This document shows positions 9,923-13,208 of a stretch of 64,000 nt of DNA, in pieces (the stretch's first letter is position 1; the number at the start of each line of letters is the position of its first letter). Under the pieces are notes generated by a model. The model had not been told where the DNA came from. It searched no databases and saw nothing but the letters and a program-made list of their open reading frames with translations. The DNA is from an uncultured candidate division WWE3 bacterium (lineage in GTDB: Bacteria; Patescibacteriota; WWE3; UBA101185; UBA10185), in the NCBI GenBank assembly GCA_963765125.1, contig CAVXUZ010000004.1, positions 64,792 to 128,791 on the forward strand, in the 5' to 3' direction. The position numbers were made by a program, and so were the translations under genes.

Positions 9923-12900
9923 ATGAAACAGTCGCTAATTAAATTATTTATTTTTTTATTCTCAATAACAGCCTTTTTTGCAAATACAGGTGTAGTGTTT
10001 TCTCACGGCCGCGAAGATGCAATGATGGTTTATGACACACTTGATGTTACTTCAACACCAAAATACAGACTGTGGGGTGGTAGTAATTGGTCCGCACAAG
10101 GAGACGCTACTAATGTAACTGGAGAGATCAGACAAATGGTAGTAAGGTACGCGCCAACACGAGATGAGGCAATTATGGTCGTACAAACGTCAGACGGCGA
10201 TATTCAAGCACAAGTGTGGGATGGAACCGGCTGGGGTACTGTAACTATTCTGGGCACGCATGCAAGCTCTCTTGCATCAACCGATACACAATCTTTATAC
10301 AGAGGATTTGATTTAGCTTATGAACAATCTTCGGGGGATGCGGTGGTAGTTTACGGCGACGGCACTGCGGACCCAGACTATAGCGTTTGGGATGGTAGCA
10401 ACTGGAGTAGCGGAGTTGATATAAATGTTCCTAATACTGGGAGTACCAAATTGGATTGAACTCGCGTCTGATCCAAACTCTGATGAATTGGCGATGATAT
10501 TAATTGATGCAGATGCCGACATCTACGGCATGAGGTGGACAGGCAGTAGCTGGGATAACATGGGGGTCACGTCTGAATGGGATGTTTCTGGCTCCAGTGC
10601 AGTACGAAAAAGTATTGATGTGGCTTTTGAAACCAACAGTGGAGACATTATGTTTATTTGGGGGTCATCAGTCACTGCAGACGATTGTGGATACCTCACT
10701 TATTCGGGTGGTGCATTGAGTGCATATGCCGCTTTGCCAAATGCAAATGCGGGCGGTCAACCTAACTGGATTAAACTTGCAAGAAATCCTAACTCTTCAA
10801 GCAACGGAATTATGTTAGGTATTCAAGACGCAGGCGCCGATTTAAACACATTTTTTTGGAACGGCACTGCTTGGAGCGCCGTACATACTGAACATGATGC
10901 CTCTACTGAAACAGCCACCGATATGAACTTTGATATCGTTTTTGAAACACACTCGTCAAACACCGACGATGCGTGGTTGGTTTGGGGAGAAGGTGCGCTG
11001 ATTAGAAGAAGGCTGTGGAATGGACCAACGAGTGCCTGGTCAGGAACCACTACAACCTCGGACGACGACACAGCACAGGTTAACTTAGCCGCGCAACCAA
11101 ATTCAGGAGCTGTTCTAGCCATAGGTTATGAATCTGATGCAGCAACTAACGACGATATTGTTGAAATTCATCAAACAGGTGGGGTACAAACGTGGTCAGC
11201 CTCTTCAATTATATGGGGCGGGCCTGTTGCAAGAAGACTAGGTAATTTCTATTACGATATCGACGCGCAAGCTTATAACTCATCTACAAAAGCAATGGTT
11301 GTTTACGACGCACAGGACGCCGAGTCAGTACCAAAATACAGACGATGGACAAGCTCGACCTGGTCTGCTGAAGAAGGAGCGCGGATTGTTGATGGGCAAA
11401 TACGCCACATGATTGTGAGATTTTCTCCAACACGAAACGAAGCCATTCTCGCAACTCTGGGGTCAAATGGTAGATTAGAAACACAGGTGTGGGATGGTAC
11501 CGGATGGGGAACCCCAACCCTAATAACTACGATGGCAGATGCACTGGGAAGTTATGACACGCAATCTCTCTATAGAGGCTATGATCTTGAGTACGAGCGT
11601 AGTTCTGGTGATGCTGTGATTGTATATGGAGATGGAACTTCAACACCTGACTATCAAATATGGGATGGTAGCGCGTGGGTTGACGGCACCGGAATTACAG
11701 TACCCACCACAGGAATACCAAATTGGATTGAGCTGTCTGCTAGTGAAGTTTCTGGGTCAGACGATCTTGCATTAATCTATATTGACAGCAATATTGATGT
11801 TTATGGCTTACGTTGGAACGGTTCAACATGGAACAATATGGGCGACGCGGCAACCTGGGATATCCAGGGTGCAAACGCCACAAGAAGATGTATTGATGTT
11901 GGTTTTGAAAAAACTTCGGGGGATATAATGTTTCTCTGGGGCGACAACACCGCAACAACCCACTGGAATTACCGTACCTACTCTGCCGGAGCTCTTAGTT
12001 CCCTTACAACATTAGCAAATGCGAATCAAGGCGGTGTCGCGAACTGGCTTAAACTTTATCCCAATCCAACATCGGGCTCAAATGAAATAATGTTGGGAAG
12101 CCAAGACGCGGGAGCTGATTTAAACACAATAATATGGAACGGCACATCTTGGGGCACAGTACACACTGAACACTCTGCTGGTGTTGAGAGCGCTACAGAT
12201 AAAACATTTGACATAGACTATGAAACATATCCAGGTAATGAAAATAGGGCTAGACTTGCATACGGAGCAGGAGCAAATATAACAAGAAAAAGATGGAATG
12301 GTACTGCTTGGGATTCCACTACAACTGCGGGCGATGATACTATGAAAATTATTATGACAACACAACCTGCTTCTGGAGCCATCCTTGCAATAATTTACGA
12401 AGACGACACATCGGCATCAGATGATATAAAAGAAATGCGTTTAACAAATGGAGCACTTGCCTGGACGGCACCTAGCACGGTATGGGGAGGCCCAGTAAGA
12501 AGAAATTTGGGGTTAAATCTAATAGATTTAGCGGCTGAGCAATACTATGTAGATTTTACTCAGAATGATTTTGAGTATTTTGTTGATGGCACATCGGTAA
12601 CATTAAACAATGCGTGGCCGCCAGACAACGGTGAAGATATTACTGAAAACACTCCGCTTGCACAAATACCGGCATCGAATATGACACTCAAGCAAGGAGA
12701 CAAAATTAGACTTCAAATGAATCTTGGTGTGTCTAGAAGAGATCTAGCCACAAATACGTACAGCTTTAAATTACAAAGCGCGCAAGCTGAAGACTGTACT
12801 GCTGCAACAGGTTGGACAGATGTAGGAGGGATTGGAGCCGCATCAGCGTGGCGTCTATACGACAACGCCTCGTTAGCAAGTTCAGTAACTCAAGTCAATC

Positions 12901-13208
12901 AAATTTCTACGTCTTCGTTAGGTGCTGAAGGTTTATATTCAGAAACAATACCCTCGCTAACTAATCCGTATCTAGTAGATAAAGACACTAGTCAAATTAC
13001 TGAGTGGGACTGGCCCCTTGAAAACAACACTGCGACAGAAAATACGTCGTACTGTTTTAGAATGATAGAAACAGCGGGATATGAATTTACAACATACAAC
13101 GCAGATGGGTATCCAAAAATTGTTACTTCCCCCGGTGTAGCCAATCTAATGCGACATGGAAATTTCTTTCAAAATGATGCTGAGAAAGGATATTTTTGGG
13201 CAAATTAA
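9923..13208 (+). CDS. secreted W-rich tandem-module repeat protein (beta-propeller-like), interrupted by a 1-nt frameshift
   Basis: Signal peptide MKQSLIKLFIFLFSITAFFANTGVVFS. Two ORFs (9821-10459 and 10425-13208) join if one G is removed from GGG at 10439-10441; the result (VPNTG-V/I-PNWIEL) then matches the second module (VPTTGIPNWIEL). WxG/WNG/WDG motifs recur about every 45 aa. Confidence 0.6.
10022..12560 (+). repeat. intragenic tandem duplication (two units of about 1.27 kb, 420-aa modules)
   Basis: Module 1 starts at MMVYDTLDVTSTPKYRLWGG (10022) and module 2 at MVVYDAQDAESVPKYRRWTS (11295). They are collinear, with about 50-60% aa identity by eye. Confidence 0.6.

Follow-up and report, generated by a model that had tools for sequence, protein, structure and literature searches.

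Members of the candidate phyla radiation (CPR)/Patescibacteria and of DPANN live attached to other microbes, and their host-recognition molecules are largely unknown. In Nanosynbacter lyticus TM7x (Saccharibacteria), the minor pilin PilX2 carries a PLL-like propeller and is required for efficient host binding (PMC11623550). This propeller is described as seven-bladed and built of RCC1 repeats (PMC11623550). Lectins of the PLL family have sugar sites between the blades, where Trp residues stack, and the blades are termed W-motifs (PMC6943638). PilY1 and minor pilins make up a pilus tip adhesin complex (PMC8833165). Here we analyze a gene at 9923..13208 (plus strand) in a 64,000-nucleotide stretch of contig CAVXUZ010000004.1, which comes from an uncultured candidate division WWE3 bacterium; the whole stretch is referred to below as the window. 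The gene is interrupted as assembled and probably specifies a twin-propeller binding protein.

Two open reading frames (ORFs) called with translation table 11 cover the locus, one at 9821..10459 with an ATG at 9923 and the other at 10425..13208 (927 amino acids, aa). Both lie on the plus strand and overlap in different frames. Reading the DNA directly, we found that deletion of one surplus base within GGGAG (10439..10443, plus strand) carries the 9923 frame into the 10425 frame and gives 1094 codons and a stop from ATG 9923, with no further break. The two modules of the protein, described below, align with each other straight across this junction (NVPNTGVPNWIEL vs TVPTTGIPNWIEL). The ortholog P0002, the closest relative, is intact (1095 aa), is 58% identical over 100% of the repaired query and reads STGIPNWIV at the same point, encoded in its locus (L079) by ACT GGT ATA CCA AAC TGG. 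Alignment with P0002 also backs ATG 9923 as the start. Because the module alignment crosses the junction and P0002 is intact there, the ORFs 9923-10459 and 10425-13208 are a single gene with one extra base. Three repairs are equivalent: removal of one G of 10439-10441 gives GGA GTA, removal of A10442 gives GGG GTA, and removal of G10443 gives GGG ATA, the last of which yields Ile (TGIPNW), as orthologs have. An earlier sequence-only reading had proposed that the two ORFs become one gene when a single G is removed at 10439-10441. The single gene stands, but the surplus base may be that G, A10442 or G10443, and with three equally good repairs a homopolymer origin of the extra base is not established. 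We also noticed that GGAG lies 9 nt 5' of the internal ATG at 10425 (10410-10427) and resembles a Shine-Dalgarno sequence; it might permit translation of the 927-aa fragment, and it is probably a chance match within coding sequence.

The N-terminus of the repaired protein looks like a Sec/signal peptidase I signal peptide (residues 1-27, 9923..10003, plus strand). By inspection it divides into MKQSLIK / LFIFLFSITAFFA / NTGVVFS, with predicted cleavage before HG, and P0002 has the equivalent ...IVYA before HG; we infer from this that the protein is secreted. Two modules of about 420 aa follow on the same strand, module 1 at residues 33-456 (10019..11291), which holds the frameshift, and module 2 at residues 457-873 (11292..12542). 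The modules are 55% identical (232/419, E 2e-165). Trp accounts for 45 of the 1094 residues (4.1%) vs 0.87% in the other 49 window ORFs (binomial p 6e-17). The description of a W-rich protein with two tandem modules of about 420 aa is therefore borne out by these values. The non-repetitive C-terminal domain that had been put at 230 aa is also present, with a length of 221 aa (residues 874-1094, 12543..13205, plus strand).

Within module 1, W-x-G-x-x-W hairpins occur at residues 51, 99, 156, 205 and 312, about every 50 residues, and a sixth at residue 365 (RLWNGPTSAWSG) has a two-residue insertion. The motif is present in six of the eight blades of each module, and the remaining two copies are degenerate. 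The count of about nine W blocks per module in the sequence-only reading is thus replaced by eight repeats of ~50 aa, six with clean hairpins and two without. With a profile of the family, each module resolves into four two-blade units of ~100 aa that are homologous to one another (hhalign E 1e-15 to 1e-18; 9e-10 for the fourth unit, which is closed circularly). At the level of single blades, even repeats match even repeats (E 1e-6 to 5e-16) and odd repeats match odd repeats (2e-7 to 9e-15), with blade 7 divergent among the eight. This odd/even alternation amounts to an (a-b)x4 pattern. Because there are eight ~50-aa repeats in this pattern, we interpret each module as a separate propeller of eight blades, a count that comes from repeats and secondary structure. 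The closing blade would combine the last strand (411-414) with the first three strands, as judged from the secondary structure.

Structure prediction of one module had been suggested as a check, and we modeled module 2 together with the tail in AlphaFold2, supplying 45 homologs. The mean predicted local distance difference test score (pLDDT) was 81, and the blocks within the module reached about 80-98, mostly 87-98 with one at 80. Module 2 was modeled as all-beta, with about 30 strands in 417 aa. The best matches in the Protein Data Bank (PDB) found by Foldseek were Trp-rich propeller lectins: PHL/PLL/PLL2-5, BP39L, the fungal fucose lectins AOL/AFL/AofleA/AAL, and RSL (E 4e-11 to 1e-7). The PLL/PHL matches had E values of 4e-11 to 4e-9 and template modeling (TM) scores of 0.64-0.69 on the target (0.67 for the match at 4e-11) at 9-11% identity, and AAL/AFL/RSL matched at 5e-9 to 2e-7. 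Together, the all-beta model, the eight related repeats and the fact that all top Foldseek matches are propellers point to a beta-propeller fold. These results uphold the earlier proposal of a duplicated, multi-bladed, lectin-like propeller; its tectonin component drops out, with no Pfam match at E ≤ 1 and no tectonin among the top 50 fold hits.

The 221-aa tail was modeled as a beta-sandwich with a mean pLDDT of 70 and is probably Ig-like. Its Ig-like Foldseek matches, to RhoGDI/UNC119 and to an adhesin CLIPPER domain, were weak (E about 2e-3), and we therefore give the tail no specific function. Homologous tails are found in P0002, P0004, P0005, P0081 and P0095-P0100. The tail ends in LMRHGNFFQNDAEKGYFWAN, and its last 20 residues (13146-13205) contain a motif, [LM]RHGxFF...[KR]G[YF][FY]W[AT][ND], that is kept in P0002, P0004, P0005, P0081 and P0097-P0100 and has no hydrophobic helix. 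To our knowledge, this motif fits no sorting signal.

The repaired protein had no useful match in Pfam (E ≤ 1), NCBIfam or, with phmmer, PDB sequences, which agrees with the earlier remark that the repeat was not recognized as a named family. Relatives of the module are nevertheless abundant. A phmmer search with module 2 against 1.84 billion representative sequences returned at least 1472 clusters at E ≤ 1e-3 and 1046 at E ≤ 1e-10. GTDB genomes with the module include Patescibacteria, Nitrospirota, Beta-/Gammaproteobacteria, Elusimicrobiota, Caldiserica, DPANN, Bathyarchaeia, Methanosarcinales and others. This widespread, unnamed family is of known fold and known functional kind.

Family members fall into three architectures. 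The first consists of single-module proteins of about 630-720 aa with PilX-type N-termini. PilX_N was found in 18 of 46 aligned family members, and a crude motif count gave a PilX-type N-terminus in 36 of 85 proteins of single-module size. In a Betaproteobacterium and a Nitrospirota metagenome-assembled genome, the genes for P0053 and P0036 immediately follow three N_methyl minor pilins and precede PilM/N/O/P-secretin genes. Archaeal members have Pilin_N (P0089) or class-III-like N-termini, and the gene for archaeal P0077 has a T2SSE ATPase gene downstream. The second architecture comprises two-module CPR proteins of about 1095-1380 aa, including the window gene. In eight CPR loci the two-module gene is closely preceded by a Beta-lactamase2-family gene, which in L082 (9037-10014), L083 and L085 (7019-8023) overlaps the start of the two-module gene. 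The window has a copy as well, at 1619-2653 (minus strand), 7 kb from the propeller gene and on the other strand. This link may hint at a cell-wall-related role. In the third architecture, found at 18 CPR/DPANN loci, single frames of up to >5900 aa contain a W-propeller and parts of the 1441-aa protein encoded next to the window gene. Fusion partners elsewhere in the family are all extracellular or adhesive (VWA, CBM96, DUF2341, fn3, MG2, GH114_assoc and TIG). Two giant members, P0102 (6719 aa) and P0103 (7926 aa), have 15 and 18 separate W-propeller stretches, respectively.

We think it probable that the window gene encodes an exported twin-propeller, lectin-like binding protein or adhesin. 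Because the family sits on type IV pili and in giant surface proteins, a lectin-like attachment protein is the most likely function. The protein would carry a Sec signal peptide followed by two independent eight-bladed propellers and an Ig-like beta-sandwich, and would act as a non-enzymatic binder. By analogy with PLL/PHL, AAL and RSL, a glycan or some other ligand on a surface would be bound in the grooves that separate the blades, and tandem propellers could provide multivalent, avidity-based attachment. In type IV pilus operons of Nitrospirota and Betaproteobacteria, PilX-type minor pilins carry the same module as their distal domain.

The neighboring 1441-aa protein (5468..9793, minus strand) is divergently encoded, has a hydrophobic stretch near residue 110 and gave weak MG2/CcmE Pfam matches. 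Nine of the 18 giant ORFs (for example, L025 and L051) have the order neighbor residues ~200-500, W-propeller, a CT-like domain, W-propeller, and repeats like neighbor residues ~900-1360. The fusion of neighbor and propeller in the 18 giant ORFs suggests that the two window genes work together, and the 1441-aa protein is a likely functional partner of the twin-propeller protein. The giant CPR/DPANN architecture appears to be split here, and the twin-propeller chain probably acts with the 5468-9793 protein as a two-chain surface adhesin, which would attach the cell to a partner cell or substrate. We tentatively extend this to a broader proposal, which we hold with considerably less confidence: that a widespread attachment module, not described before, is carried on pilus tip proteins of bacteria and archaea and in giant proteins of CPR/DPANN episymbionts, and that in the window it is divided between a membrane-anchored chain (5468-9793) and a secreted chain (9923-13208) that would reassemble on the surface to recognize a host-cell glycan.

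Several observations weigh against an exported, lectin-like attachment protein. The start of the window protein (MKQSLIKLFIFLFSITAFFANTGVVFSHG) is Sec-like and has no PilX_N or prepilin N-terminus, the scanned ORFs of the window included no pilus genes, and the nearest CPR two-module relatives are coupled to the Beta-lactamase2-family gene and not to pilus genes. Neither ORF as assembled could give a complete propeller with a signal peptide. A hmmsearch of all PDB sequences with the family profile gave 0 matches, and hhalign of the unit profiles against RSL (the sequence was verified against PDB 2BS5) was not significant (E 0.01-0.13, probability below 4%). Sugar-binding residues could not be mapped on the modules; those of RSL include Arg and Glu, for which no aligned counterpart was found in the window protein. 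In addition, the even blades have a conserved [FYI]D..[YF]E sequence (YDLEYE, IDVGFE, FDIDYE) on the strand predicted to be innermost, and several invariant polar residues are specific to certain blades rather than present in every unit, which fits one special, possibly catalytic, site better than eight equivalent lectin sites. In module-2 numbering, the invariants specific to certain blades are E50, Q65, R95, D98, Y101, D190, R228, D272, T279 and E299. These features leave room for a single central site or for catalysis, in which case the propellers would be enzymes, for example glycosidases, sialidase-like enzymes or lyases with cell-wall polymers as substrates, and not passive lectins or adhesins. 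A Foldseek match to a Micromonospora sialidase (propeller plus beta-sandwich, E 3e-9), the translational coupling of CPR relatives to the Beta-lactamase2-family (serine hydrolase) gene and a GH114-associated domain in one relative point in the same direction. Sialidase matches, however, had a root-mean-square deviation of about 25 Å and a TM score of about 0.3 and ranked below the lectins, no glycoside-hydrolase, sialidase/BNR or PQQ Pfam match was obtained, and the typical places of the module, at pilin N-termini and in giant surface proteins, fit adhesion. Catalytic propellers are thus unlikely in our estimation, and we retain the lectin-like binding protein.

The state of the gene is a separate matter. 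An authentic extra base would make the gene a true pseudogene; the cell would then produce a secreted stub of 178 aa, a cytoplasmic fragment of 927 aa or both, and neither is a complete exported propeller. We give this possibility a little less than an even chance. The deposited assembly contains the frameshift, and its annotation predicts the 927-aa ORF (P0001). The site is at most a 3-base run and not a classic homopolymer error site. The assembly does not seem generally error-prone, because no other broken gene was noticed in the scanned parts of the 64-kb window and its long ORFs (1441, 1526 and 1678 aa) are unbroken. A decaying gene, however, is harder to reconcile with a single lesion in 3.3 kb, with an intact downstream coupled gene and with identities to P0002 of 61% 5' and 63% 3' of the frameshift. 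One lesion combined with equal conservation on both sides leaves two explanations, an error of assembly or an inactivating mutation that arose very recently, and we consider the two about equally likely. No second assembly of the species was found for comparison: a collection of 15 billion proteins contained just the frameshifted 927-aa product, for which no contig was recorded, the exact-flank DNA pattern had 0 matches in metagenome contigs, a protein-guided metagenome scan reached 63% identity at best, and the best GTDB representative reached 48%. A +1 move at ACU-GGG-AGU would restore the full protein, and a programmed shift there would produce it at a regulated level, but P0002 and about 30 two-module homologs examined all use one frame, and the site is without a stop or hungry-codon context, a slippery motif or a conserved stimulatory element. 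Promoter- and terminator-like sites in a scan of 9700-14400 were fewer than in shuffled sequence, which we also counted against a programmed shift, and we regard this explanation as highly improbable. Phase variation is ruled out because the 3-base run is too short. An alternative code in which UGA is read as Gly, as in Gracilibacteria, is likewise ruled out: stop codons in the window (TAA 30, TAG 14, TGA 6) fit table 11, under which 6 of the 50 ORFs terminate in TGA and the coding density is 91%. The frame change at 10439-10443 is in any case shown by homology and not by a stop codon.

Synteny with the P0002 locus extends downstream. The next gene (13208..14194, plus strand) encodes about 328 aa with an N-terminal hydrophobic segment and no Pfam match, and its counterpart immediately after P0002 in L079 shares 39% identity with it. 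Its ATG overlaps the stop of the propeller gene (TAATG), and the two are therefore probably co-transcribed and translationally coupled. On the minus strand, a 257-aa gene without a Pfam match (14172..14945) also shows conserved synteny, as it is homologous (26% identity) to a 241-aa gene directly upstream of P0002 in L079.

Other parts of the window were recorded in passing. A second large surface-protein system lies at 42677-47924 (minus strand), where a sortase gene is directly downstream of a gene for a 1526-aa DUF11-containing protein. At 20016-26211 (plus strand), a 1678-aa ORF without a Pfam match is followed by an overlapping gene for a GT87-family glycosyltransferase. Genes for YidC, a Jag/KhpB-like protein and DnaN, an origin-proximal set, occupy 49160-53707 and adjoin a VirB4/TraG-type P-loop ATPase gene on the minus strand. 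This DnaN shares 69% identity with proteins recorded as 'Patescibacteria group bacterium' and about 50-55% with WWE3 proteins. A 106-aa TsaB/TsaD-like ORF (32574-32894, minus strand) matches Pfam positions 35-85 of 264 and is closely bounded by a methyltransferase gene on the opposite strand; it may be a truncated or minimal TsaB.

Although the copies of Pfam and NCBIfam that were searched contain no model for the module and none of its relatives has a solved structure, it occurs in >1000 protein clusters. The window gene alone adds little, as the single assembly available carries it in interrupted form. A named module with a known ligand would be a concrete candidate for host or surface recognition, and the split and fused architectures predict a two-chain surface complex.

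Among described propellers, the PLL/PHL lectins of Photorhabdus (PDB 5C9L and 5MXE) and BP39L resemble the window module in their Trp-rich, four-stranded blades, or W-motifs. They differ in blade number, since PLL/PHL have seven blades and seven W-motifs whereas the window module has eight repeats in an (a-b)x4 arrangement. Other features that set the window protein apart are the two tandem propellers, the Ig-like tail, the predicted signal peptide and the source, a CPR bacterium. The chains of PLL, PHL and PLL2-5 were absent at E ≤ 10 from both the phmmer and the profile hmmsearch results for PDB sequences, and with eight repeats and no sequence match the module is not assigned to PLL/PHL. 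The AAL/AFL/RSL/BambL fucose lectins, which are six-bladed or trimers of two-blade units, share the two-blade unit and a W-[DN]-G-x-x-W hairpin (CWDGKGW and CWDGNGW in RSL). RSL, however, has three units and the window module has four. Hairpins of the W-D-G-x-G-W type occur in six of eight blades, but so short a motif is not by itself evidence of homology. Because hhalign against RSL was not significant, we claim no homology to AAL/RSL, and membership was rejected on that result and on the absence of a Pfam match. The likeness to propeller lectins is thus one of fold and a short motif. A few family members gave weak matches to DUF2510, a short domain of unknown function. A faint precomputed match to PF26696 ('PTL_trimer') on P0004, P0015, P0018, P0023, P0025 and others, and at L082/L083, was not reproduced against Pfam at E ≤ 10, and this name was not found in the literature.

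Tectonins/TECPR are also multi-bladed, Trp-containing propeller lectins. Membership was rejected, with no Pfam match at E ≤ 1 and none among the top 50 fold matches. The eight-bladed PQQ quinoproteins were set aside because the module has no PQQ Pfam match and no quinoprotein is among the top 50 fold matches, and the sialidase/BNR propellers because no BNR or sialidase Pfam match was obtained and the fold matches superpose so poorly. PilY1 is similar in that a propeller adhesin domain is displayed on the pilus, and the single-module relatives fill the slot after the minor pilins, as in pilX-pilY1. Unlike PilY1, these relatives fuse the propeller directly to a PilX-type N-terminus; no Pfam match links the module to the PilY1/PilC propellers, and the top 50 fold matches do not include PilY1. 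The window protein is not a PilX-type minor pilin either, as it lacks the N-terminus and the scanned window ORFs include no pilus genes. PilX2 of TM7x is, like the window protein, a CPR propeller protein that resembles PLL lectins in structure searches. Unlike PilX2, the window protein has two propellers of W-hairpin repeats, gives no RCC1 match and begins with an N-terminus of Sec type, not of pilin type. Because PilX2 is a CPR propeller needed for host binding, it is the closest functional analogue within the same superphylum.

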